A DNA stretch of 20,757 bases from an uncultured virus (IMG/VR IMGVR_UViG_3300005673_000046) (lineage: Duplodnaviria; Heunggongvirae; Uroviricota; Caudoviricetes): IMG/VR virus record IMGVR_UViG_3300005673_000046. The stretch is one strand, 5' to 3'. Every line of letters begins with the position of its first letter. The first letter of the stretch is position 1. Both the position numbers and the translations under genes were made by a program. The notes beneath the pieces were generated by a model. The model saw nothing but the letters and a program-made list of their open reading frames with translations, did not search any database and was not told where the DNA came from. This document shows, in pieces, positions 1 through 14,488 of this stretch.

Positions 1-247
1 CCGCATGCTCGGCGCGGCGGGTGGCGCGCTCGTAGCAGGCCTGGCCGGCCTGTTGGCTGACCTGCTCCAGCGCCACGCACTGCGCCCAGGACTCCAGCAT
101 GTCGGCTGCCAGGCTGTTCTGTTGTGCCTGCAGCGCCCGAATGCGTGCCTCGCGCTCCTCATCGGCCGATGGCTGCACCAGCAGATGCGTCCCGTAGACC
201 AGCGCCAGCAGCGCGGCCGCGGCGACGGCAATGCTTCGCGGCTTCAT
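1..247 (-). CDS. Hypothetical exported/membrane-anchored protein (3' end runs off window)
   Basis: Not in the ORF track; translated by hand: MKPRSIAVAAAALLALVYGTHLLVQPSADEEREARIRALQAQQ... It has a basic N-terminus plus a hydrophobic stretch, a GGGGAG RBS just upstream on the minus strand, and no stop before base 1. Confidence 0.6.
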   Translation of the reverse strand, partial: MKPRSIAVAAAALLALVYGTHLLVQPSADEEREARIRALQAQQNSLAADMLESWAQCVALEQVSQQAGQACYERATRRAEHA

Positions 248-529
248 GCCCTGCTCCCCTGTCTCAGCCGCTCAGGACGCACACACAGCGACGGCAAGCT
301 CATCGAGCTGCCGACCCTGCGAGTAGGCGCCGCCACGGCTGATGGTCTTCGGCGGCTGGCCGCGGCCGAGGGCATGCCCCTGGCCGAGTTCGTTCGGACG
401 CTGTTGGATGCGCGGGTGTTCGGTGCGGCTCATGTCGAAAGCCTAGCCGTCGATCGCATCCGGCGGGTGGTCGGAACCGGGGCCGCAAAAGGCCCGATTC
501 CGGGGTCGCACTGGGAGGTGCGTCGATGA
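185..529 (+). CDS. Putative phage transcriptional regulator (cII position, ribbon-helix-helix-like); start uncertain
   Basis: The C-terminal part LPTLRVGAATADGLRRLAAAEGMPLAEFVRTLL fits a strand-helix-helix pattern. It is ATGA-coupled to the next gene. The annotated start at 5 overlaps the minus-strand gene; ATG 185 is a nearer in-frame option. Confidence 0.55.
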   Translation: MRPVDQRQQRGRGDGNASRLHALLPCLSRSGRTHSDGKLIELPTLRVGAATADGLRRLAAAEGMPLAEFVRTLLDARVFGAAHVESLAVDRIRRVVGTGAAKGPIPGSHWEVRR

Positions 530-873
530 GCCTGGGGGTGGAGTCCGTCGCCACCGGCATCGAACTCAAGCGCGCCGGCCAGCAGCTCGCGCTGGACTTC
601 TCCGGCTCCTGGGCCGAGGAGGTCGTCATGGAGTTCCGCGGCTGGGCGGCCATCGAGAAAGCCCGCGGCCTGGAGCGCACCACGATCGAGCGGTTCCGCG
701 CCACGGCGCGCCACCAGCCGCCGTCGCACAAGGCGTGGGGCGCGCTGCCGCGCCTGCTCGTCGAGGCCGGGCTGATCGAGCCGGTGCTCGATGACACCGG
801 CCAGCCGGTCTACCGGCGCGCGGCTTCACCCAAGACCCACGCGCATCCGGTGCGCCTGTGGAGGCTGCGCTGA
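526..873 (+). CDS. Phage hypothetical protein (possible winged-helix DNA binder)
   Basis: 115 aa, GC3-rich codons, coupled on both sides; motif PPSHKAWGAL...AGLI...HAHPVRLW. Confidence 0.75.
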   Translation: MSLGVESVATGIELKRAGQQLALDFSGSWAEEVVMEFRGWAAIEKARGLERTTIERFRATARHQPPSHKAWGALPRLLVEAGLIEPVLDDTGQPVYRRAASPKTHAHPVRLWRLR

Positions 874-1802
874 TGGGGGCCAAACTCATCCGCCAGGACA
901 TCCTGGAGTCCGAGCGCGTGGCCAAGCTGCCCATGGAAGGGCGCTGGCTGTTCCTGGCCATCCTGCTGACGGCCGACGACCTGGGCCTGTTCGAGGCCAC
1001 GACGCACCGGCTGCACAAGAAGTCCGACCTCAAGCACGAGCACATCGAGCGGCTGCTGCCCATCCTGGCCGACCTCGACCTGATCCGACTGTACCCCGGG
1101 CCCGGCGCCAGAGTCTTCGGGTTCATCCCCCGCTACGGCCAACGTCTGCGGGTCCGGCGCGTCCGATTCCCCCTCCCGCCCATCGAACTGCTGGCCGGAG
1201 ACGAGGACGCCATCAAGAAATTCAACAACTTAGTCGCCGAACTCGCTGACAAATGCGGCGGATTGCAGCATTCCGCCGCAACGCGCGGCGAAGTGCGGCC
1301 TGAACCTGAACCTGAACCTGAACCTGAACCTGAACCTCCTAACGGAGGAATACCAACCACAGGTTCGCTTCGCTCACCTGTGGTCGTCGCCGGAGCTGGC
1401 GCTCCGGGCGACCAGACCGGGGTAATCCCGAAGACCACGGACCCGGCCAAGCCGTGGCTGGCGGTGGCTGAACGGTGCCCGCACCAGAAGCTCGTTGCGC
1501 TGTACCACGAGCTGCTGCCGACGCTGGACCGCGTCGCGCGCTGGGACGACCGCCGCCAGGCGTTTTCCCGCGGACGCTGGCGCGAGGTGGCCATCGAACG
1601 GCGCTGGCGGGACGAGGAGGAGGGGCTGCGGTACTTCGCCCGGTTCTTCCGCTACGTGGCCACCTGCCCGCACCTGATGGGCAAGAGCCCACCGCAGACG
1701 CCGGGCGGTCCGCCGTTCCAGGCCACGCTGGAGTGGCTGCTGCGGCCGACCAACTTCGTGAAGGTCGTCGAGGGCTTCTACGCCCCGAAGGAACGCACAT
1801 GA
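873..1802 (+). CDS. Phage replication initiator protein (lambda O analogue)
   Basis: TGATG overlap at 871-875. N-terminal RWLFLAILLTADDLG, central (PE)n linker and C-terminal CPHQKLVALYHELLP...ATLEWLLRPTNFVKVVEG, an architecture typical of phage replication proteins. Confidence 0.8.
   Translation: MGAKLIRQDILESERVAKLPMEGRWLFLAILLTADDLGLFEATTHRLHKKSDLKHEHIERLLPILADLDLIRLYPGPGARVFGFIPRYGQRLRVRRVRFPLPPIELLAGDEDAIKKFNNLVAELADKCGGLQHSAATRGEVRPEPEPEPEPEPEPPNGGIPTTGSLRSPVVVAGAGAPGDQTGVIPKTTDPAKPWLAVAERCPHQKLVALYHELLPTLDRVARWDDRRQAFSRGRWREVAIERRWRDEEEGLRYFARFFRYVATCPHLMGKSPPQTPGGPPFQATLEWLLRPTNFVKVVEGFYAPKERT
1299..1334 (+). repeat. Perfect tandem repeat (CCTGAA)x6 encoding a Pro-Glu linker
   Basis: Read directly from the sequence. 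Confidence 0.97.
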
Positions 1803-2233
1803 GCAGAGGTTTCAACCCCGACACCGACGACGAGCCGGCCGGTAGTGCGCCGCCGTCGACCCTGCGCTGCAATGCCCACGGTTGCCCGCACCGCAGGACG
1901 GTGCGCACCGAGCTGGGCCAGCTGTGCAGCGCGCACGCCGCGGCGCCGCCGCACGAATGGCCGGCGCTGACGGCGCATCTGCAGCACCTGGCCGAGCGCG
2001 GCCAGCGCGCGGCGCCGCCGCCGGCGGCGCGTGCCGTGATTCACGACCCGGAGCGGCTGCGCCGTGCCGCGGCAGTGCTGCAGGCGCGCATGAGCGGCGC
2101 CGCAGGTAGCCGCGAATGGGCCTACCGGCTGCGTGAGCGCGAACAGCGCGGCGAGCGGCTGTCCAAGGCGCAGCGCGACGCCTGGCGGGCCGCCATACCG
2201 CGGTCCCTGGACCACGAAGCACAGGAGGCCTGA
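1799..2233 (+). CDS. Hypothetical protein at the helicase-loader (P-like) position, with Cys/His motif
   Basis: ATGA overlap 1799-1802; MSRGFNPD...CNAHGCP...LCSAH...REWAYRLREREQRGE. Function inferred from position only. Confidence 0.65.
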   Translation: MSRGFNPDTDDEPAGSAPPSTLRCNAHGCPHRRTVRTELGQLCSAHAAAPPHEWPALTAHLQHLAERGQRAAPPPAARAVIHDPERLRRAAAVLQARMSGAAGSREWAYRLREREQRGERLSKAQRDAWRAAIPRSLDHEAQEA

Positions 2234-2236
2234 GCC

Positions 2237-2539
2237 ATGCCCCGCGCCGCCAGCACGCCCTTCAACACCTACCGGCCGCCCGAACCGGCGCCGCACACGA
2301 TGCCAGGCTGGAGCGCGGCCGAGAACGCGCGCCGCGCGAAGCGCAAGGCGCTGCGCCTGGAGCCGGATGCACCGCGGGTGCCCAGCGAACCGTGCTTCAC
2401 GGTCTGCCCGACGCCCAGCCGCGAGGTCGTCCTGCCGCCGGGCTACGTGAGCCAGCTCAACCCCGCCGACTGCCGCCCGTGGGCGGCGGCCGCTACCACC
2501 CGAGGAGAACCCGATGAAGCCCCCCGTCAGCGCCGCTGA
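2237..2539 (+). CDS. Phage hypothetical protein
   Basis: GGAGG RBS upstream, 100 aa, fits the operon. Confidence 0.6.
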   Translation: MPRAASTPFNTYRPPEPAPHTMPGWSAAENARRAKRKALRLEPDAPRVPSEPCFTVCPTPSREVVLPPGYVSQLNPADCRPWAAAATTRGEPDEAPRQRR

Positions 2540-2804
2540 GGCCATGGAGTCGGCCCGCGTCGAGCGCGTGCGCGCCGCGCGCGCCATCAAGCATCCCGTC
2601 CAGCTCGAAGCCAACTACTACGGCCCGTGGATGAAGCTGGCCGAGTTCGACGCCGCCGACGACTTGGCCTTCAGCACCTGCCGCCAGGCCTGCGAACTGC
2701 TGGCGTCGGTCGACAAGGCGGCCGCGTTCCGCTTCTCGACGGCGGCCGCACCGCGCCGGGTTCTGGCGACCTACACCCTCAAGACCGGCTGGCAGGAGGC
2801 GTGA
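2514..2804 (+). CDS. Phage hypothetical protein
   Basis: GAGGAG RBS, GC3-rich codons, abuts the next ORF. Confidence 0.7.
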   Translation: MKPPVSAAEAMESARVERVRAARAIKHPVQLEANYYGPWMKLAEFDAADDLAFSTCRQACELLASVDKAAAFRFSTAAAPRRVLATYTLKTGWQEA

Positions 2805-3167
2805 ATGGCCTTCCGCGTCCCTGACCAGTTCCGCGTCACACGCGGCCGCCTGGGCACCGAGCGCGGCTCCGGCAACAACGGCGCCTTCGTCCTCCCGGCG
2901 CCACCGCGGTCGCTGTCGAATGCACGGCTCCACTGCATCGCCACCGACAACTTCGGCTGGGAGCACGTCAGCGTCACGCTGAGCGCGCCGCGCATCCCGA
3001 CCTGGGCAGAGATGTGCTACGTCAAGAGCGTCTTCTGGGAGCCCGAGGACACGGTGCTGCAGATCCACCCGGCCGAGTCGGAGTACGTGGATCTGCACCC
3101 TCACTGCCTGCACCTGTGGCGACCGATCGGCACCAGCTTCCCGGTGCCGCCGACGTTCCTGGTCTGA
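2805..3167 (+). CDS. Conserved phage protein (DUF7694-like)
   Basis: Motif WEHVSV...PTWAEMCYVKSVFW...QIHPAESEYVDLHPHCLHLWRP. Confidence 0.75.
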   Translation: MAFRVPDQFRVTRGRLGTERGSGNNGAFVLPAPPRSLSNARLHCIATDNFGWEHVSVTLSAPRIPTWAEMCYVKSVFWEPEDTVLQIHPAESEYVDLHPHCLHLWRPIGTSFPVPPTFLV

Positions 3168-3170
3168 GCC

Positions 3171-3701
3171 GTGGAAATCCAGCTCGTGCGCCGCGCCGAT
3201 GTCGTCCTCTCCGAGGAGGACAAGGCCGCGCTGCGTCGGCTGGTCACGACCATCGTGTGCGGGCTGGGCGAGGCCAACCAGCGGGCCTGGCTGCGGCTGT
3301 GGGCCCGGATGTGGCGCATGGAGCCCGGCGAAGTCCAGACGATCTGGACGCACAAGGAGCGCCTGGGCTGGTTCCACCGCAAGCACATGGCCCTGGAGAC
3401 GAGGGTCTTCGAGGGGCAGGAGCGGTTCGAGTCCTTCGAGTCCTTCCGCGACTGGCTCAAGATCGGCGCTGGCCACGTCGAATGGCATGCCGGCCCGCGC
3501 GGCGGCATCGTGCCCATCCCGAAGTCGATCAGCTACGCGAGGCTGGGGCAGGACGAGATGGAGGAGTTCCACGCGGCGGCCGTGGCCTTCCTGCGCACCG
3601 AGCGCGCCGCCAAGTGGCTGTGGCCGCGCATGCCGGCCGCGCAGCGTCAGGGTGCGATGGACGCGATCCTGGGCGCGTTCGGCGCCTTCGGGGAAGGCTG
3701 A
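3171..3701 (+). CDS. DUF1367-like nin-region protein
   Basis: Motifs FHRKHMAL, FESFRDWLKIGAG and PKSISYARLGQDEMEEF. Confidence 0.75.
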   Translation: MEIQLVRRADVVLSEEDKAALRRLVTTIVCGLGEANQRAWLRLWARMWRMEPGEVQTIWTHKERLGWFHRKHMALETRVFEGQERFESFESFRDWLKIGAGHVEWHAGPRGGIVPIPKSISYARLGQDEMEEFHAAAVAFLRTERAAKWLWPRMPAAQRQGAMDAILGAFGAFGEG

Positions 3702-3710
3702 TGCAACCCG

Positions 3711-3995
3711 ATGCAGTCCAGGAACAAGCCCTCGATGACTCGCGCGGAGCGCGAGCACGTCGAGCGGGTGAAGTTGCTGCCGTGCTCGGTGTGCGACACC
3801 GGCGGCGGCTACTCGGCGCCGAGCGAGGCGCACGAAATCGAGCAAGGCATGTGGTGGTTGTCAGTCGCGCTGTGCGCGGAGTGCCACCGCGGCAGCGTGC
3901 TCGGATGGCACGGCCAGCGCCGTATCTGGGCGATCAAGAAGATGACCATGCTCGATGCCCTGGCGGTGACGATCCGCCGGCTCATGGGCTACTGA
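3711..3995 (+). CDS. Ref-family/HNH-like zinc-binding nuclease
   Basis: CSVC...HEI...LCAECHRG...GWHG pattern, in a nin-region context. Confidence 0.7.
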   Translation: MQSRNKPSMTRAEREHVERVKLLPCSVCDTGGGYSAPSEAHEIEQGMWWLSVALCAECHRGSVLGWHGQRRIWAIKKMTMLDALAVTIRRLMGY

Positions 3996-4043
3996 TGACG
4001 GCATGCCGGCAGCCGACGATGCCGGCGACACAGGAGAGGCACC

Positions 4044-4151
4044 ATGCCCACCAAGACCGCCCCGATGAAGAACGCCAAGCCCAAGCCCGGCCAGAAGCCG
4101 CCGCCGGCCAAGGAGAGCAAGGCCGAGAAGCGCCGCGGAAAGGCCTGCTGA
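4044..4151 (+). CDS. Small Lys/Pro-rich basic peptide (35 aa)
   Basis: AGGAGAGG RBS; MPTKTAPMKNAKPKPGQKPPPAKESKAEKRRGKAC; GC3-rich codons; fills the gap before the Q-like gene. Confidence 0.65.
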   Translation: MPTKTAPMKNAKPKPGQKPPPAKESKAEKRRGKAC

Positions 4152-4161
4152 AGGTCGCGCG

Positions 4162-4770
4162 ATGACCGTGCCGGGCGATCGCCCCACCATCCCAGAGCGG
4201 TATGCGCGCGCACTGGAGTCCTCGCATCTGGAAGCCACGCCAGAGCGCCAGGGCGACGTGGACGTGCTCATCGCCGCGGGGTGGGCCAAGGATTCGCTCG
4301 GCACGGCCCTGTACCGACTGCGCGCGGAGTACGACGCGGTGAACAAGCGCGAGCTCGCACTGGTCGCCAACAGCCGCATCGCGCGCGCCATCGTGATGTC
4401 GCAGCTGCAGTCGCTGCAGCCGACGAAGCTGCGCCTGACCGCCTACGCGCTCAAGCAGGCCACCATCAACCGCGTGATGCTCAACGACGCCGACGTCATG
4501 CGCATTGCCGCGGCCGCGCTGGCGCACTGGATCGACGATCGCTGCCCGGCCTGCACGGGCCGCGGGTTCAGCGGCGGCGCTGGCCAGCCCATCGTGCTGT
4601 GCTCTCTGTGCCGCGGCACCGGCACGCAGCGCCTGAGCGGGAGCCGATCCAAGCGCCTCGGCCAGAACAACACCGAACACCAATTCGGCGCTCTGCTGCT
4701 GGAGCGCATGGACCGAAAGACCGCCTGGGTCGCAAGCACCATGGCCCGCTGGCTGCGGAGGTTCGCGTGA
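4162..4770 (+). CDS. Antitermination Q-like protein with zinc finger
   Basis: CPACTGRG...CSLCRGTG zinc finger, about 200 aa, located after nin-like genes as lambda Q is. Confidence 0.7.
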   Translation: MTVPGDRPTIPERYARALESSHLEATPERQGDVDVLIAAGWAKDSLGTALYRLRAEYDAVNKRELALVANSRIARAIVMSQLQSLQPTKLRLTAYALKQATINRVMLNDADVMRIAAAALAHWIDDRCPACTGRGFSGGAGQPIVLCSLCRGTGTQRLSGSRSKRLGQNNTEHQFGALLLERMDRKTAWVASTMARWLRRFA

Positions 4771-4988
4771 GCGACGACCTGGTGCCCGCCGCGGTGATCG
4801 AGAGGATGACCGGCTATCGCCAGCCGGCCGCCCAGCTCGCCGAGCTGCACCGGCAGGGCTTCTGGCGGGCTCGTCGCCTTCGCACCACCGGCAAGGTCGT
4901 GCTCGAGCGGCCGCACTTCGAGGCCGTGAGCAGCGGCGCAGACGCGCAGTTCGGCCGCACGCGCCAGCCGAAACTGGCCCCACCGTAA
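4767..4988 (+). CDS. DUF4224-like small DNA-binding (excisionase-like) protein
   Basis: GTGA overlap; IERMTGYRQPAAQLAELHRQG...GKVVLERPHFEAV...PKL. Confidence 0.7.
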   Translation: MSDDLVPAAVIERMTGYRQPAAQLAELHRQGFWRARRLRTTGKVVLERPHFEAVSSGADAQFGRTRQPKLAPP

Positions 4989-4998
4989 GGAGACGAAT

Positions 4999-5505
4999 GT
5001 GCTCAGCGCATCCCGCGCCGAACAGATTGAGCGCGGCCTCAACGAGATGGCCAAGCGCGTGCTGCGATCCGTTCCGGTCAACGAGACGTGGACCACACAC
5101 CAGATCGACCAGGACTTGCGTCGCGCCGGCAGCCGAGCCGACCGTGACGTCATCCTGGGATGCCTGGGCCGCCTCGTGAAGGCCGGGCTGATCGACGAAC
5201 CAGGCCCGGGTCACTTCCGACGCCGCAAAGTCCGTCCACCGTACATCACCGAAGTCACGAAGCCCAGCGCACAACCACAAGGAGACGTCATCGTGCCTGA
5301 CGCAACGCCGCACGCCGCGGAACGAGCATCGACCCTGGATCAGCTCGCAAAGGTCGCCTCCGAGCTGCGCGCTGCCGCGGCGCGCCTGGAGGAGATGGCG
5401 CGCGACATCGACGACCTGGCCGTCGAGATCGTCGAGGCGCAGGAGAAGACCAGCGCCGACGTGGTCAAGCTGCGCCAACTGCAGGCGCTTCTCAAGAACC
5501 TGTGA
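4999..5505 (+). CDS. Hypothetical protein, N-terminal winged-helix-like domain plus C-terminal coiled coil
   Basis: TAAGGAG RBS; ILGCLGRLVKAGLIDEPGPGHFRR followed by a heptad-rich tail. Confidence 0.75.
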   Translation: MLSASRAEQIERGLNEMAKRVLRSVPVNETWTTHQIDQDLRRAGSRADRDVILGCLGRLVKAGLIDEPGPGHFRRRKVRPPYITEVTKPSAQPQGDVIVPDATPHAAERASTLDQLAKVASELRAAAARLEEMARDIDDLAVEIVEAQEKTSADVVKLRQLQALLKNL

Positions 5506-5585
5506 CCCTGGAGAAGACGATGCACACACCCACGATCAAGCACTACCGCGTCACCGTCTGGGCCGCTGGCCCCGGAGCGTGAAGC

Positions 5586-5765
5586 ATGGGAACGACGACG
5601 GTATGGGTGCTGGTGTTCTTCATCGGCGGATGGACGCACAACGGAGGGCCTGCGGTGGTTGACAACATTGCTAGCGCGCAAGAGTGCGAGAAGCTGGCGC
5701 AGGCGATCCAAGACATTCGCGGCGAGGCGCGCTATCGGTGTGTGCCGGTGGCGAAGGTGAAGTAG
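5586..5765 (+). CDS. Small hypothetical protein (59 aa), cassette-like gene A
   Basis: Translated by hand: MGTTTVWVLVFFIGGWTHNGGPAVVDNIASAQECEKLAQAIQDIRGEARYRCVPVAKVK. GGAG RBS at 5574-5577; the stop is 2 nt before attC-like site 1. Confidence 0.7.
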   Translation: MGTTTVWVLVFFIGGWTHNGGPAVVDNIASAQECEKLAQAIQDIRGEARYRCVPVAKVK

Positions 5766-5767
5766 CG

Positions 5768-5830
5768 GCCCAACGTTGCCGGTAAGCGGCCGGGCCGCCA
5801 GGCCTGGTCCGCTTGACTGGCGGGTTGGGC
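5768..5830 (-). other. Integron attC-like recombination site 1 (63 bp)
   Basis: Minus strand reads GCCCAAC-ccgcc-AGTCAAGC-ggaccaggcc-tggc-ggcccggcc-GCTTACC-ggcaac-GTTGGGC. This gives RYYYAAC/GTTRRRY ends, 5 and 6 nt spacers, 8/7 nt L boxes and two unpaired bases (+ strand G5815, T5808). Confidence 0.88.
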
Positions 5831-5859
5831 GGCTGGTGGAGAAACGAGAAGGAGCATGC

Positions 5860-6057
5860 ATGCACACAGCACCGATGTCAGACAGCCAAGGCGAGTTCGC
5901 CGAGTTCAAGACCCAGCCCGACGTGCCTTGCCGCAAGTGCGGCGTGCACGCGGTGAGCATGCGCGAGTGGGAAAGCTCGTGCGGCGGCTGGGAAGACTAC
6001 CAGTACAAGTGCCACCACTGCGGCCATACGTGGTGGGTGGAAGGAATCGACGCATGA
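5860..6057 (+). CDS. Small zinc-ribbon protein (65 aa), cassette-like gene B1
   Basis: GAAGGAG RBS; CRKC...CHHCGHTW. Confidence 0.75.
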   Translation: MHTAPMSDSQGEFAEFKTQPDVPCRKCGVHAVSMREWESSCGGWEDYQYKCHHCGHTWWVEGIDA

Positions 6058-6281
6058 CGTACTGGTGGCTCGTTGAGAACTTCACTGCCGAAGGGCATTC
6101 CACCGGGCTCTATATGGCGTGCCAAGTGAACATGACCCTGACCGCCGACGTGCACAAGGCTCGCAAGTTCCGCCGCCAACGCACGGCCGAGTTCCGTGCG
6201 CTGGACATGCGTGACGCGAGGCGCGGCGACTGGCGGGCCGTGGAGCACGGCTTCGACGACAGCAAGACGCCCAACGGATAG
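6054..6281 (+). CDS. Small hypothetical protein (75 aa), cassette-like gene B2
   Basis: ATGA overlap with B1; MTYWWLVENF...AVEHGFDDSKTPNG; stops inside attC-like site 2. Confidence 0.7.
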   Translation: MTYWWLVENFTAEGHSTGLYMACQVNMTLTADVHKARKFRRQRTAEFRALDMRDARRGDWRAVEHGFDDSKTPNG

Positions 6282-6323
6282 TTGACCTGCGCCGCAGGCG
6301 TCAGGTCCAACGCAGGGTTGGAC
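6269..6323 (-). other. Integron attC-like recombination site 2 (55 bp)
   Basis: Minus strand reads GTCCAAC-cctgc-GTTGGACC-tgacgcc-tgc-ggcgca-GGTCAAC-tatcc-GTTGGGC. Same box structure and same two-bulge asymmetry as site 1; the second spacer is 5 rather than 6 nt. Confidence 0.78.
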
Positions 6324-6340
6324 CGGCGCCGCGCGCGTCG

Positions 6341-6383
6341 CAAACCGGTTTGGCTGCCCAGCAGGCCGGGGCGCCGCCACAGT
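6341..6383 (+). promoter_or_regulatory. Candidate activator-dependent late promoter (Mor/C-type site plus -10-like hexamer)
   Basis: Perfect 12-bp palindrome CAAACCGGTTTG (6341-6352); CACAGT at 6378-6383, 7 nt before ATG 6391. Mu has a C-dependent promoter upstream of gene I. Confidence 0.5.
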
Positions 6384-6390
6384 GCACGCC

Positions 6391-7578
6391 ATGCCCCGGC
6401 CGCTGCCCCTCATCGCCCTGCTCGCCGCCACCATGCCGGTGGCCGCGGACGGCACCGCGCAGCTGCTGCCTGTGGGCGAATTCACGGCGCGTGACGGGCG
6501 GCCCGGCAACGGCCTGACCTGGAAGATCACCGATGCACAGGGGCGGCTGCTCGCCGAGCGGCTGAACCTGGTCGCGTCGCTGACGCCCATCGTCTACGAC
6601 TACGACCACGCGACGATGACGACGCGCGGCACCGGCAACCTGGCGCCCGCTGCAGGCTGGATCAAGAGCGTGAGCTGGGTCGAAGGCCAGGGCCTCATGG
6701 CCAAGGTCGAGTGGACCGAGCGCGCCAGGAAGCTGATCGAGGCCAAGGAATACCGCTACTCGAGCCCCGTCATCGAATACGACGAGGACACCGGCGAGGT
6801 CACCGGCGTGCTGATGGCCTCCCTCGTCAACTACCCCGCGCTGCTGGGCATGGACGCCGTGCAGGCGGCCCTGTCCGGGTTCGCTTCCTCGTCAACCAAG
6901 CCGCCCGGCCGCGAGGCCGGCACCCACGGAGACCCCGCCATGTCCAAGACCATCGCCCTTGCCGCGCTGCTGCCGCTGATCGGCCTGGGCGCCAGCGCCA
7001 CCGAAGACGAAGCCGTGGCCCGCGTCACCGCCCTGCAGGGCGAGCTCGAGCAGCTGCGCAAGCGCCCGCTGCTCACCGAGGCGCTGGCCACCGCGCTGGG
7101 CGTGGCGGCGACCGCCGACGAGGCCGCCGCGCTGAGCGCCGTGGCCACGCTCAAGACGGCCGCCGGCGGCGCCGGCGACGCGGTGCGGCAGCTCACGGCC
7201 CTGCAGGGCGAGCTCGCCACGCTGCAGGGCGAGCTGGCCCAGATGCGCACCGCGCAGGCCGAGACCGAGATCGCGCGCCTGGTCGACGACGCCATCGCCG
7301 CCGGCAAGTTCGCGAACGCGCAGCGCGACCAGCTGCTGGCCACCGGCCGCAAGGACCGCGCGCTGCTGCAGGGCCTGATCGCCAGCGCCGTGCCCATCGC
7401 GGCACTGGCCGGCACCAACCTGCAGGCCACCCGCGCCGCGGCCGCCGCGGCCGCCGGCGGCGCCGCCCCGCAGATGACGCCCGAGGCGCGCCAGATCGCC
7501 GCGCTGATGGGCATCACCGAGGCCGAGTACCTGAAGTTCAAGGCCGACCAGGCCAAGGCCCAGGGCGCCACCGCCTGA
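6391..7578 (+). CDS. Mu-like prohead protease (gpI) with C-terminal scaffold
   Basis: QLLPVGEFTARDGRP, YDYDHAT, APAAGWI, VEWTERA...EYRYSSPV, SLVNYPALLGM, followed by an Ala-rich helical region. Confidence 0.93.
   Translation: MPRPLPLIALLAATMPVAADGTAQLLPVGEFTARDGRPGNGLTWKITDAQGRLLAERLNLVASLTPIVYDYDHATMTTRGTGNLAPAAGWIKSVSWVEGQGLMAKVEWTERARKLIEAKEYRYSSPVIEYDEDTGEVTGVLMASLVNYPALLGMDAVQAALSGFASSSTKPPGREAGTHGDPAMSKTIALAALLPLIGLGASATEDEAVARVTALQGELEQLRKRPLLTEALATALGVAATADEAAALSAVATLKTAAGGAGDAVRQLTALQGELATLQGELAQMRTAQAETEIARLVDDAIAAGKFANAQRDQLLATGRKDRALLQGLIASAVPIAALAGTNLQATRAAAAAAAGGAAPQMTPEARQIAALMGITEAEYLKFKADQAKAQGATA
6940..7578 (+). CDS. Nested in-frame scaffolding protein (Mu gpZ analogue)
   Basis: Internal GGAG (6928-6931) and an in-frame ATG at 6940, right after the protease domain. 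Confidence 0.7.
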   Translation: MSKTIALAALLPLIGLGASATEDEAVARVTALQGELEQLRKRPLLTEALATALGVAATADEAAALSAVATLKTAAGGAGDAVRQLTALQGELATLQGELAQMRTAQAETEIARLVDDAIAAGKFANAQRDQLLATGRKDRALLQGLIASAVPIAALAGTNLQATRAAAAAAAGGAAPQMTPEARQIAALMGITEAEYLKFKADQAKAQGATA

Positions 7579-11053: not shown

Positions 11054-14000
11054 ATGGCCACCGGCGGCGTGCGGGAGGTTGGCGTCCGCATCAAGGTCGG
11101 TGCCACCGGCCTGGAGGAAGCCACCAGGCTAAGCCGGAGCCTGAAGGACCTGGGCGTCGACGCCGAGGCGCTGGACAAGCGCGCCGGCGAGCTCTCGGCG
11201 GAACTGACCAGGCTGGGCCAGCAGCAGGCGCTGATCGACGGCTTCAAGCGCAAGAAGGCGGCCACCGAGGAGGCCGCCAAGGCGCTGCAGCAGGCGCAGG
11301 AAGCCGCCCAGAAGCTGGGCCGCGAGTTCGGGGCCACCGAGGAGCCCACCAAGCGCCAGGAGCAGGCCCTGGCCAGGGCGCGCGCCGAGGTCACGAAGGC
11401 CAAGACGGCCTACCAGGAAAGCGGACTGGCGCTGCAGACGGCCAGAAAGGGGCTTTCCGACGCCGGCATCGGCAGCGACGAGCTGGCGGCCGCACAGGTG
11501 CGGGTGCGCAAGCAGACGACCGAGACGCAGCAGGCCGTCGCCGAGCTGACCAACCGCTACCGCGCCGCGGAGGGCCAGGCCAAGCTCAGCGCGCAGCAGC
11601 AGGCGCAGCTGGCCCGCGCCACAACCGAGGCAGGCAGCGCCAGCACGCGCGCTGCGAACGAGCAGGCGGCCGCCGGCCAGAAGGTGGCCGGCAGCCTGGA
11701 GGGTGTGCAGCAGCGCCTGAGCGCCATCGGCAAGCTGGCGGTGGGCGGCGTGCTGGGTGCGGGCAGTCTGAATTTCCTGCGCGGCGTCACGGCCACCGCC
11801 GACGCCTTCAACAACCTGCGCGCGCGCATGCAGCTCGTCACCGGCGAGGGGCCGGCGCTGGATGCGGCACTGCTGTCGGTGCAGGAGATCGCGCTGCGCA
11901 CGGGTGCGAGCCTGGAGAACACGGGTACCCTGTTCACGCGCGTGCTCTCCGCCGGCCGCGAGATGGGCCTGGCGCAGGCCGACGCGCTGCGCCTGACCGA
12001 GAGCATCAATCAGGCGGTGGCCATCAGCGGCGCCAGCGCGGCCGCCTCCGACGCGGCCATCACGCAGCTGATCCAGGGCCTGCAGAGCGGTGTGCTGCGG
12101 GGCGAGGAGTTCAACAGCGTCGTCGAGCAGAGCCCGCGGCTCGCGCAGGCGCTGGCCGACGGCATGGGCGTGGCGCGCAGCGAGCTGCGCGGCCTGGCCC
12201 AGGACGGGAAGATCAGCGCCGAGACCGTGATCCAGGCGCTGCAGTCGCAGGCCGACGTGCTGGAGCGCGAGTTCGGCCAGCTGCCGCAGACCGTGGGCCG
12301 CGCGGTGGAGAACCTGAACACCGCCTGGTCGGTGTTCGTGGGCAACCTGGACCGCACGACCGGCTTCACCTCGGCGGTGGCCAGCGGCATAGGCTTCATC
12401 GCCGACAACCTGGACGAGCTGGCGGCGGTGGCCGGCCGTGCCGGCGCCGTGATCGTGGCGGCGCTGGCCGTCAAGGCGGCCGGGGCCCTGCGCGACCTGG
12501 CCACCCAGGCGCTGGCCAGCGCGAGCAGCTTCGGCGTGCTGCTGACCAGCATCGAGAAGATCCCGCGCACGGTGAACATCGCGATCGCGGTGACGGGCTT
12601 CGAGGTCGGCTTCCAGATCGGCCAGATGCTGCGGGAGAACAGCGCGCTGGCCAGGCAGCTGGGCGTGGCGGTGACGGAGTTCTTCACCAACATCGTCCGC
12701 GACCTGCAGTTCGTGGTGGAGGCCGGCCGGGCCATCTTCACCGACGACACCATCGGGGCCGCGTTCGAGCGGCTCAAGCAGCGCGCGGCGGAGCAGCAGG
12801 CCATCTTCGCGGACCTGTACGCCGACGCCCGCCGGGCGCCGCAGGCGGTGGCGCAGGCGGCCGCCGGCGCCGAGCAGAGCCTGGGTGCGCTGGGCGCCCA
12901 GGCCCAGGGCGTGGGCCTGCAGCTCGGCCGGGCCGGCGCTGCCGGTGCCGCCGGAGTGCAGCAGCTTGGCCAGGCGGCCGACACCGCGGCCGGCGCGCTG
13001 GCGGCGCTGGTCGCCGGCGCCACGGCGGCGCTGCCCAAGGTGGGCGAGACGGCTGCGGCGCAGGCCCGCGAGCTGGCCAGGCTGGCGGAGGGAAGCGAGG
13101 AAGTGCGCCGCCGGCTGGCGGACGGCATCCCGGCGGCGCTGGAGAAGCTCAACGGCACCCAGCTCGTGGAGTTCCGCGCGGAACTCGAGCGCGCGCTGCA
13201 GGGGTCCGCAAAGGGCGCGGAGGTGCTGCAGGCCGCCTTGCAGGAGGTGGGTCGTCGCGCCGCGCAGGCGCTGGGCGTGGATCTGGCAGGAGCCAGCGCC
13301 ACGGTGACCCGGCAGTTCGCGCAGCAGATGGATGCGCTGTCAGCGCTGATACGGGCCCTGCCCGTGCTCGAGCGCACCGGCGTCGACACCGCCCGCGTGG
13401 TGGCCGACGCGCTGGCCAAGATGGTGGACGGCGCCAGGAGCCAGGCCGAGCTGGACGCACTGCGCACGCGCATCGAGGCGCTGGGCAAGGCCGGAGAGCT
13501 GAGCCGCGAGCAGGTCGTGCGGCTCATGGACACCATCACCGCCAAGGCGGCCGAGGCGGCCAGCAGCGTGAGCCTCATCGACGAGGCGCTCAAGACATTC
13601 GGCATCACGACCCAGGCCGAGCTGAAGAAGACGGCCGACAACTTCAAGCAGGCCTGGGACCGCATCCGGGAGAACTCCACCGTCACGCTGGACCAGAAGC
13701 GCCAGGCCTTCGTGCAGTACGCGAACGCCGCGATCGCGGCCAACGGCGGCGTGATCGACAGCCAGATCCGCAGCCAGGCGCAGGCCTTCAAGCTGGCCGT
13801 GGAGGTGGACAAGACCGGCAAGGCGGTCGTCAGGGCGATGGGCGAGGGCGCCTTGGCCAGCGACCAGCTGAGCGGGGGCTTTCGCACCGCGGCCGAACAG
13901 GCACGCAAGCTGGGGGCCGAGGTGGCGACCCTTACAAGCCAGGTTGGCAACCTCACCGCTGGCTGGGAAAAGGCCCTGCGCGCGCGCAACGCCGCCGTGC

Positions 14001-14488
14001 AGAGCACGCTCACCTGGGAAGGCCGCGACGCCGCCGGCAACCTGGACCGCACCTTCGTGGGCAGTAGCGNNNNNNNNNCCTTCACTCCGCCCCCGGACAA
14101 CAGCGGCGACTGGGTGTGGATGGCCACCGCCGCCAGGCCGGGCGGCGAGTGGGTGCTGACGCCGGAGGCGAGCGCGCGGCGGTTTGCCGACCAGGAGCAG
14201 GCGCGCGGCCTGGTGCCGGTGCGCGACCCGTCAGGCTCCGTGCGCTATGTGCAGCCCAGCGGTGCACCTTCCACCGGCGCACCGTCGGCGGCCGCACCGG
14301 CCTCTGCGCCCGTGCCTGCCCCTGCGCCTGCACCGCAGCCCAGTGCAGCGCCGGCGCCGACGAGCGTGGTGGAGATCCGCTTCACGCGCGGCGACGGCAG
14401 CTACGTGCCAGCGGTCGTGAGTTCGCAGCAGGCGGCCGACGAGCTGGCCGCGCTGTTGCGCGAAGAGATGGAGCGCCGGGGCGGATGA
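11054..14488 (+). CDS. Tail tape measure protein (contains a 9-N gap at 14070-14078)
   Basis: 1144 aa, Ala/Gln-rich helical; motif AAITQLIQGLQSGVLRGEEFNSVVEQSPRLAQALADG. Confidence 0.95.
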   Translation: MATGGVREVGVRIKVGATGLEEATRLSRSLKDLGVDAEALDKRAGELSAELTRLGQQQALIDGFKRKKAATEEAAKALQQAQEAAQKLGREFGATEEPTKRQEQALARARAEVTKAKTAYQESGLALQTARKGLSDAGIGSDELAAAQVRVRKQTTETQQAVAELTNRYRAAEGQAKLSAQQQAQLARATTEAGSASTRAANEQAAAGQKVAGSLEGVQQRLSAIGKLAVGGVLGAGSLNFLRGVTATADAFNNLRARMQLVTGEGPALDAALLSVQEIALRTGASLENTGTLFTRVLSAGREMGLAQADALRLTESINQAVAISGASAAASDAAITQLIQGLQSGVLRGEEFNSVVEQSPRLAQALADGMGVARSELRGLAQDGKISAETVIQALQSQADVLEREFGQLPQTVGRAVENLNTAWSVFVGNLDRTTGFTSAVASGIGFIADNLDELAAVAGRAGAVIVAALAVKAAGALRDLATQALASASSFGVLLTSIEKIPRTVNIAIAVTGFEVGFQIGQMLRENSALARQLGVAVTEFFTNIVRDLQFVVEAGRAIFTDDTIGAAFERLKQRAAEQQAIFADLYADARRAPQAVAQAAAGAEQSLGALGAQAQGVGLQLGRAGAAGAAGVQQLGQAADTAAGALAALVAGATAALPKVGETAAAQARELARLAEGSEEVRRRLADGIPAALEKLNGTQLVEFRAELERALQGSAKGAEVLQAALQEVGRRAAQALGVDLAGASATVTRQFAQQMDALSALIRALPVLERTGVDTARVVADALAKMVDGARSQAELDALRTRIEALGKAGELSREQVVRLMDTITAKAAEAASSVSLIDEALKTFGITTQAELKKTADNFKQAWDRIRENSTVTLDQKRQAFVQYANAAIAANGGVIDSQIRSQAQAFKLAVEVDKTGKAVVRAMGEGALASDQLSGGFRTAAEQARKLGAEVATLTSQVGNLTAGWEKALRARNAAVQSTLTWEGRDAAGNLDRTFVGSSXXXXFTPPPDNSGDWVWMATAARPGGEWVLTPEASARRFADQEQARGLVPVRDPSGSVRYVQPSGAPSTGAPSAAAPASAPVPAPAPAPQPSAAPAPTSVVEIRFTRGDGSYVPAVVSSQQAADELAALLREEMERRGG

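Follow-up and report, generated by a model that had tools for sequence, protein, structure and literature searches.

Does the early operon of this phage, in which no integrase was found, hold a gene cassette of the integron type, and if so, which genes belong to which recombination site? The question is raised by a locus in a 20,757-nucleotide (nt) stretch of DNA from an uncultured virus of the Caudoviricetes (IMG/VR record IMGVR_UViG_3300005673_000046), hereafter called the window, in which two hairpins with the architecture of attC sites lie among three small genes, A, B1 and B2. We consider it likely that the hairpins are integron-type sites without an integrase of their own, and that they bracket one B1-B2 cassette of reversed polarity in a lambdoid early operon. 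The two sites are the following.

5768-5830, + strand: attC1, with the attC bottom strand on the + strand (covariance model R1, 39.5 bits, E-value 8e-9; DNA fold). The 5' arm carries the R box GCCCAAC at 5768-5774 and the 3' arm GTTGGGC at 5824-5830; T5808 and G5815 are bulged on the 3' arm.
6269-6323, + strand: attC2, a short and partly degenerate site, with the attC bottom strand on the + strand (R1, 27.7 bits, E-value 1.2e-5). The 5' arm carries GCCCAAC at 6269-6275 and the 3' arm GTTGGAC at 6317-6323.

The covariance model R1 was built from eight attC sites that adjoin integron integrases in three viral contigs (alignment A2). In this training alignment, 77% of the cells pair, as compared to approximately 40% when the partners are slid by one column. 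A first alignment of ten sites (A1) had two long loops misplaced and was replaced by A2, and a third helix in the loop, with only 64.6% pairing, was excluded from the model. When the window was searched with the filters off, R1 matched both sites on the + strand only; the opposite strands of attC1 and attC2 scored 7.4 and 9.6 bits, respectively, and the third-best match in the window scored 12.6 bits. The two matches coincide exactly with the hairpins at 5768-5830 and 6269-6323 that a preliminary description of this DNA had proposed, and the observation of two attC-type sites is thereby confirmed.

The model also recognized bacterial sites. It matched the aadA1 attC of plasmid R100 at 21.6 bits and recovered four of seven class 1 attC sites in three plasmid arrays, all on the strand opposite the resistance genes. 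At E ≤ 0.05, nothing was found in 47 kb of the contigs G001, G002 and G003 outside the arrays, except the copy of attC2 itself at the end of G001. One match of 23.8 bits was obtained inside the IS26 transposase gene of a Salmonella plasmid (L168, 7417-7468); it is probably a false positive and sets the practical noise level of R1.

Folded as DNA, the + strand of attC1 forms a 63-nt imperfect hairpin of -30.0 kcal/mol (z -5.1; 0 of 200 shuffled sequences were as good), as compared to -22.3 kcal/mol for the - strand. For attC2 there is no such strand asymmetry (-24.6 versus -24.4 kcal/mol). The R boxes follow the pattern RYYYAAC ... GTTRRRY with the invariant AAC and GTT, forming seven of seven possible pairs in attC1 and six of seven in attC2. 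Inspection of attC2 reveals a single additional C, in GGTC[C]AAC, a bulge that the predicted fold does not display. The sites are separated by 438 nt, and the ends of the unit between them are complementary, as previously claimed: GTTGGGCG at 5824-5831 and CGCCCAAC at 6268-6275. Searches of the window, G002 and G003 against Rfam gave no family at the cut-off. Thus, attC1 is securely a member of the attC family, and attC2 is a weaker, partly deleted member, whose membership is also supported by its position, because an attC begins 6 to 9 nt before the end of the B2 match in 7 of 14 B2-bearing loci.

The polarity of the sites was deduced by comparison with R100. On the coding strand of aadA1, the site reads AAC, 5 nt, GTTCAAGCC ... 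GGCTTAAC, 6 nt, GTT, with the extra base on the 5' arm. The + strand of the window has the geometry of the complement of this site, with a 6-nt spacer followed by a 5-nt spacer and the extra base on the 3' arm. According to the sections of Nivina 2016 used here, IntI cuts the bottom strand within the AAC triplet, and the extrahelical bases of the bottom strand sit on the arm opposite AAC. The + strand of attC1 agrees with this description, since T5808 and G5815 are bulged on the 3' arm, opposite AAC. Judged from the bulge positions, the comparison with the aadA1 attC and the strand of the R1 match, the coding (+) strand is therefore the attC bottom strand.

This placement changes which genes belong to which site. 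The preliminary description had assumed the classical layout, a gene followed by its attC with a cut at G|TT of the right-hand box. The window has the opposite polarity: R1 recognizes both of its sites on the strand that carries the genes, but recognizes class 1 sites on the strand opposite their genes. With the + strand as the bottom strand, each attC belongs with the genes downstream of it, and the predicted unit consists of attC1, B1 and B2. Cuts are then expected at 5773|5774 and 6274|6275, that is, at GCCCAA|C in the left-hand box. The predicted cassette and its genes are as follows.

5774-6274, + strand: predicted mobile cassette of 501 bp, delimited by the bottom-strand cut site and by the ends of homology in relatives; it would begin with the body of attC1 and a leader, continue with B1 and B2, and end with the first six bases of the following R box.
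5860-6057, + strand: B1, an open reading frame (ORF) of 65 amino acids, zinc-ribbon-like with two CxxC pairs; the match to Zn_ribbon_8 is weak and below the cut-off.
6054-6281, + strand: B2, 75 amino acids; its start overlaps the B1 stop (ATGA) and its last codons lie inside attC2.

In this arrangement, the attC would serve as the 5' leader of the cassette, and B2 ends inside the next site, reading through its box as ACG CCC AAC GGA TAG. The previous claim that the genes stop at or within a GCCCAAC box was correct for B2 and also for gene A, the TAG of which lies 2 nt 5' of the attC1 box.

Related arrays were identified in viral contigs. A protein-guided scan with B1 retrieved two contigs, G002 (33 kb, 91% complete) and G003, which share with the window B1-B2 or B1 alone at 89-94% identity. 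The flanks of G002 and G003 are unrelated to those of the window, and related phages differ in gene content at such sites. On the gene strand of both contigs we observed a repeated element, GCCYAAC-GYAGAG-(S)TAACCGG ... loop ... CCGGTT[G]AGC-GACCT-GTTRGGC, in which the bulge is always on the 3' arm and the loop is variable; the gene that follows often has its ribosome site and start codon within this loop. The conserved bases of the element are read in differing frames (GAC GCC TAA, ACG CCC AAC), so that it is the nucleic acid that is conserved. The recurrent C-terminus KTPN had also been considered as a conserved peptide, a reading that was rejected as the same bases are in another frame elsewhere. 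R1 identified 14 sites in G002, in 6.5 kb directly after NinB, and 8 sites in G003, all on the gene strand. The phage of G002 (L012, 10-7419) resembles P22, being a podovirus that encodes a tailspike and ejection proteins. Its array of 14 sites starts after NinB and ends in a DNA methyltransferase gene, a position corresponding to the lambdoid nin region. The G+C content at third codon positions (GC3) of the G002 array genes is 0.68-0.83, versus 0.9-0.96 for most of the backbone genes (range 0.79-0.96).

A 17-nt motif from the 5' arm of the element was found in 119 stretches of viral contigs. Some of these adjoin true integron integrases: three contigs encode proteins scoring 479, 460 and 425 bits against TIGR02249 (cut-off 265 bits), with the elements next to intI in each. 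The arrays are located at 8562-14350 of L146 (G023), 7281-10703 of L147 (G056) and 4277-7119 of L148 (G053). In all three, a full intI lies directly downstream of the attC array and is co-directional with the cassette genes; transcription of the array would therefore run into intI, unlike in the classical divergent layout.

The genes of the related arrays lie on the attC bottom strand. R1 matches were obtained in 68 loci, 44 of which had at least two matches, and in 43 of these 44 loci all matches were on one strand. To assign the coding strand, the longest open frame of each strand was compared to PHROG (E ≤ 1e-4) for 105 segments of 180-1,100 nt between adjacent sites, a set that excluded four near-duplicate loci as well as the window, G002 and G003. 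Matches were obtained for 36 of the 105 bottom-strand frames and for a single top-strand frame (1/105). The three IntI-linked arrays gave 5 of 13 and 0 of 13, respectively. A test based on the period-3 pattern of GC assigned 53 of 104 segments to the forward strand and 18 to the reverse strand, with 33 unclear; it was right for 35 of 37 chunks of known genes and wrong for two segments with known genes, and the PHROG test was preferred. The lengths of stop-to-stop frames were uninformative as an indicator of the coding strand in this GC-rich DNA. For loci fetched by homology to B2, which is independent of the attC motif, all 35 R1 matches were on the strand of B2, and R1 matches were present in 11 of 12 loci carrying the full B2. 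Thus, reversed polarity is general among the related viral arrays, including those beside IntI. The cargo that could be named consists mostly of DNA methyltransferases, and also includes Mom-like, Lar-like, DHH phosphoesterase, RNA ligase and exonuclease proteins.

The borders of shared sequences were used to locate the exchange points. A total of 31 blocks of at least 150 nt and at least 80% identity were shared between different loci. Twelve of their right ends fall within -12 to +25 of the attC start (5' box), as compared to two near the attC end (3' box). Of the left ends, seven coincide in both partners with the start of an attC (offsets from -8 to +4) and four lie near the attC end, with the rest elsewhere. 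The B1 cassettes of G002 and G003 are 98% identical from the R box on and differ in the first box, GCCC versus GCCT, which fits with the first six bases belonging to the preceding cassette. Among ten B2 loci, identities of at least 80% were observed in 40 of 45 pairs for B2, in 10 of 45 pairs for the upstream attC and in none of 15 pairs for the downstream attC; the outer flanks reached this identity in 0 of 45 and 0 of 15 pairs.

Natural variants of the locus were sought in contigs from four public runs, X3 to X6; X5 and X6 cover parts of the locus, and the uncovered parts are not evidence. In X3 and X4, two sludge runs, there are contigs identical to the window (0 differences) from 5398 or earlier through 6276 that then continue into other sequence, so that the branch point is at most 2 nt from the predicted cut at 6274|6275. 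The first 30 letters past 6276 match an unrelated viral contig, where they form the 5' arm of an attC that R1 scores at 25 bits. Used as a probe, this continuation retrieved that one unrelated contig and not the variant itself. The X5 contig, from another study, spans 5860-6392 with four differences and two gaps, and has a G002-type leader before B1.

We infer from these data that an IntI acting in trans, encoded either by the host or by a co-resident phage like the three IntI-bearing relatives, would cut the + strand in its folded form at GCCCAA|C. The outcome would be excision of 5774-6274 as a circle or insertion of other cassettes at this place, and B1-B2 would be read from the phage early promoter and not from a Pc promoter. 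If the origin of replication is in the O-like gene to the left, as is presumed, the + strand would be both the lagging-strand template and the non-template strand, a placement that should favor its folding. A trans-acting IntI is a reasonable assumption, because gene content at such sites differs among the relatives and a few of these carry a true IntI.

Several observations weigh against an active cassette, and many of them are expected if the attC sites are instead relics of one past insertion, with mosaicism caused by homologous or illegitimate recombination that uses attC arms and gene borders as linkers. One group of observations concerns the integrase. No Phage_integrase domain was detected among the 27 scanned ORFs of the window, none by Pfam in five GC3-selected ORFs of the 4 kb to its left (in contig L166), and no integrase was found in G001-G003, in line with the earlier claim that none is nearby. 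An integron integrase above the TIGR02249 cut-off was present in only 3 of 100 motif-bearing viral records. The locus lacks the intI, attI and Pc beside the array that characterize a complete integron. IntegronFinder 2 defines a CALIN (a cluster of attC sites that lacks an integron integrase) as at least two attC sites without IntI, as worded in the sections of the article used here (PMC9024848). The window locus is a two-site CALIN, as had been suggested, because both R1-positive sites belong to the attC family and no integrase was found in the scanned ORFs. A second group concerns the sites themselves. The minimum-energy structure of attC2 is not a single hairpin (z -2.6). In the R1 alignment its L box is partly missing and one R-box pair is mismatched, and its score is just 4 bits above that of the likely false IS26 match. 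The spacer of attC1 is almost wholly paired in the predicted fold, with 2 + 1 nt unpaired; the spacers GYAGAG and CGACCT of the relatives pair at most at their ends by inspection. The source sites of R1 were found via a motif from this phage family and are thus of the same attC type by ascertainment. The third group concerns the borders. B1-B2 of the window is shared with G002 at 94%, with a different attC preceding it (48% in a global alignment, the level of unrelated sequences); the left border of this block is therefore the start of B1 and not AA|C. B1 and B2 are split at the ATGA overlap in G003, and many other joints occur at ATGA gene overlaps without an attC. Since such joints lack attC, and since B1, B2 and attC1 are separable in relatives, ordinary phage mosaicism also acts here, and the shuffling is not all site-specific. 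G002 has an extra gene of 100 codons after B2 (L012, 4680-4992), flanked by the 9-nt repeat GACAGCAAG, of which the window has one copy in 6257-6275; the arrangement resembles the outcome of a short-homology deletion or insertion within a cassette and does not fit a purely site-specific picture. NinB, a recombination mediator of the NinB/Orf type, is encoded in both the window and G002. Finally, the study that produced X3 and X4 is also the one from which the source sample of the window probably comes, and rates cannot be read from contigs. Despite these points, we regard the relic explanation as unlikely: it does not account for the concentration of block right ends at the 5' R box, for the lack of co-inheritance of the downstream attC with B2 as compared to the upstream attC, for the natural variant that branches at the predicted cut, or for the intact IntI genes that adjoin some of the related arrays.

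Two further explanations concern the nature of the hairpins and the context of attC2. The hairpins could function in the RNA, by terminating transcription, serving as RNase processing sites or controlling translation between early genes, and only resemble attC sites. They do lie between genes of one operon, the strand that folds best is the one with mRNA sense, and in the relatives a ribosome site and start codon, those of the following gene, are often found in the loop. However, there is no T-run and there are no terminator-like sites in 4900-6500, no Rfam family was found at the cut-off, and the conserved boxes are read in two frames and are thus not conserved as a peptide. As the same family adjoins IntI and cross-matches class 1 attC sites, we find an exclusively RNA-level role very improbable; an RNA role in addition to attC identity may exist. 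The right-hand context could, alternatively, be chimeric, with two phages joined across a shared B1-B2, in which case attC2 and the head genes would be foreign to the early-operon phage. There is no terminase, portal, late regulator or lysis gene between the early genes and the head protease, and other assemblies break at this place: L166 stops at 5914, G001 has its first base at 6254, and contigs of X3 break at 6262-6276. The left contig of X4 has a depth of 19.3, versus 6.6 for the right contig, and the left one continues into another attC. On the other hand, the X5 contig bridges the B2-attC2-head gene region from 5860 to 6392, an X3 contig covers 6262-6675, and G001 begins 15 nt before attC2, so that the chain from B2 through attC2 to the head gene is covered, though only piecewise, across X5, X3 and G001. 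A chimera seems doubtful to us, and even if the context were chimeric, attC1 and an attC after B2 would stay in the early-operon phage; the join of early operon and head genes may reflect either a deletion variant or a chimeric assembly in which the shared cassette served as the bridge.

Clusters of attC sites in phages are already known, and the reversed polarity of the cassettes is an addition that we have not found in print. The sections of Qi 2023 (PMC9892861) used here report 17 phage CALINs with methyltransferase cargo and recombination by IntI1 at five of the six phage attC sites tested. As described there, these CALINs of temperate and virulent phages resemble the window locus in having at least two attC sites, no IntI and small accessory genes in between, and their recurrent DNA methyltransferase cargo is also seen in the relatives of the window. 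In the same sections, the phage arrays are described as bacterial-like and bottom-strand genes are not mentioned, whereas in the window the polarity is reversed and there are two sites. No paper on reversed phage cassette polarity was found in the literature, in a search that did not cover the supplementary tables of Qi 2023.

The aadA1 cassette of In2 in R100 resembles the window sites in the AAC/GTT R boxes, the bulged G of the L box in TT[G]A and the spacer of 5-6 nt, and in the three viral contigs with IntI, the attC strands are placed with respect to intI as they are in R100. The difference is in the genes. In R100, the gene on the top strand precedes the attC and is read from Pc beside attI and a divergent intI, whereas in the window the genes are on the bottom strand, the attC comes first, and there is no attI, Pc or IntI. 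Sedentary chromosomal integrons also have many attC sites on the same strand, uncharacterized cargo and a dependence of folding on the template strand, as outlined in the sections of Richard 2024 (PMC13108822) used here. According to these sections, bottom strands on the lagging-strand template favor folding and excision, and sedentary chromosomal integrons have the bottom strand on the leading-strand template, which disfavors excision. The phage of the window would differ from them, because a rightward fork starting in the O-like gene would have the bottom strand on its lagging-strand template.

The window locus is also similar to another type of phage cassette, in which small novel genes of a plastic early region are each flanked by a repeated stem-loop and shuffled between phages. 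These are the PeSL 'mobile regulatory cassettes' of T4-type phages, reported by Arbiol, Comeau and Krisch in 2010; they reportedly consist of an early promoter and a stem-loop and are exchanged by homologous recombination. The window locus differs from PeSL in having no promoter-like site and in that its sites belong to an IntI-linked attC family.

The window, its relatives and the three contigs with an integrase agree in having the genes on the strand that would fold and recombine, which is the opposite of bacterial cassettes. We tentatively suggest, as a possibility short of a firm expectation, that phages infecting GC-rich bacteria of sludge and soil keep their own mirror-image cassette pool. 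The reversed polarity would place the recombinogenic strand on the non-template strand and, past the phage origin, on the lagging-strand template, which would render the arrays highly recombinogenic. The attC would be the leader in this design, often carrying a ribosome site and start codon, with the previous gene ending within the attC. Expression would be from early promoters, and the IntI that shuffles the cassettes would come from the host or from phages with an intI of their own, located downstream of the array and transcribed in its direction. Much of the cargo would serve in counter-defense, in the form of DNA methyltransferases and Mom-like and Lar-like proteins. If the reversed gene direction holds at the bench, the phage and bacterial cassette pools would be largely separate and use the same enzyme chemistry, phage cassettes would be wrongly delimited by finders that expect the attC after its gene, and a site-specific route for swapping counter-defense genes would exist in phage early regions.

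The genomic context of the cassette locus was reconstructed from the window and from a single metagenome contig, L166 (68 kb), which was obtained by a protein-guided scan with the 4999-5505 protein. The window has a G+C content of 71%, and no DNA match to 4900-6700 was found among GenBank phage records. Apart from the features given above, the following are relevant.

858-1802, rightward: O-like replication initiator.
3171-3701, rightward: NinB/Orf.
4999-5505, + strand: early gene of the upstream flank, phrog_4405.
5586-5765, + strand: gene A, 59 amino acids; TAG at 5763-5765, 2 nt before the attC1 box.
6391-7578, + strand: downstream flank, Mu-like protein I (head protease/scaffold; Pfam Mu-like_Pro, 258 bits).

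The rightward run of phage genes comprises the O-like initiator, DUF7694, NinB/Orf, several unassigned genes and the phrog_4405 gene, followed by A, B1 and B2. Located 3' of B2 are the Mu-like protease/scaffold, a decoration protein, a major head protein of the Mu gpT type, and connector and tail genes. L166 is identical to the window over 1-5914 and extends 4 kb further to the left, where a leftward cI-like helix-turn-helix repressor is followed by rightward genes. Based on this extension, we conclude that the cassette locus is located approximately 6 kb into a lambdoid rightward early operon, in its late part. The placement of the sites within a phage early operon thus stands, and no promoter-like or terminator-like site was found in 4900-6500. 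The repressor gene, together with a small rightward gene, occupies 3139-3933 of L166, directly to the left of the window, and this segment is probably the immunity region driving the cassette-bearing early operon. For the 4999-5505 protein, protein-guided scans gave no relatives in viral contigs, and two matches in species genomes, both of which were spurious. Further to the right, a long ORF resembling a tape-measure gene (11054-14488) is interrupted by a run of N (the window has 11 N), and this gene is thus incompletely sequenced.

B1 and B2 gave weak matches or none in the Pfam and PHROG scans. B1, the DNA of which is 94% identical in G002, belongs to a phage-only cluster of hypothetical proteins (Atlas). 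B2 has relatives in 13 viral contigs and is likewise in a phage hypothetical cluster (Atlas). Gene A had also been taken for a cassette gene; there is no attC upstream of it and no relatives were found in viral contigs, and it is at most a candidate. The GC3 values of A, B1 and B2 are 0.78, 0.83 and 0.85, respectively, as compared to 0.90-0.94 for most of the early genes and 0.96-0.99 for the head genes. The three genes do, as reported earlier, have more A/T-ending codons than most early and head genes, but they are not distinct from their surroundings as a whole, since the rep gene (0.82) and the 4999-5505 gene (0.80) are equally low.

Immediately upstream of gene A, there is a mini-ORF of 20 codons (5521-5583), the start of which resembles that of B1 in 14 of 17 bases (5520-5536 versus 5860-5876). 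A contig from run X6 tracks the window as far as 5530, beyond which its sequence resembles an attC 3' arm. The mini-ORF and the X6 break may together mark the scar of an older cassette junction.

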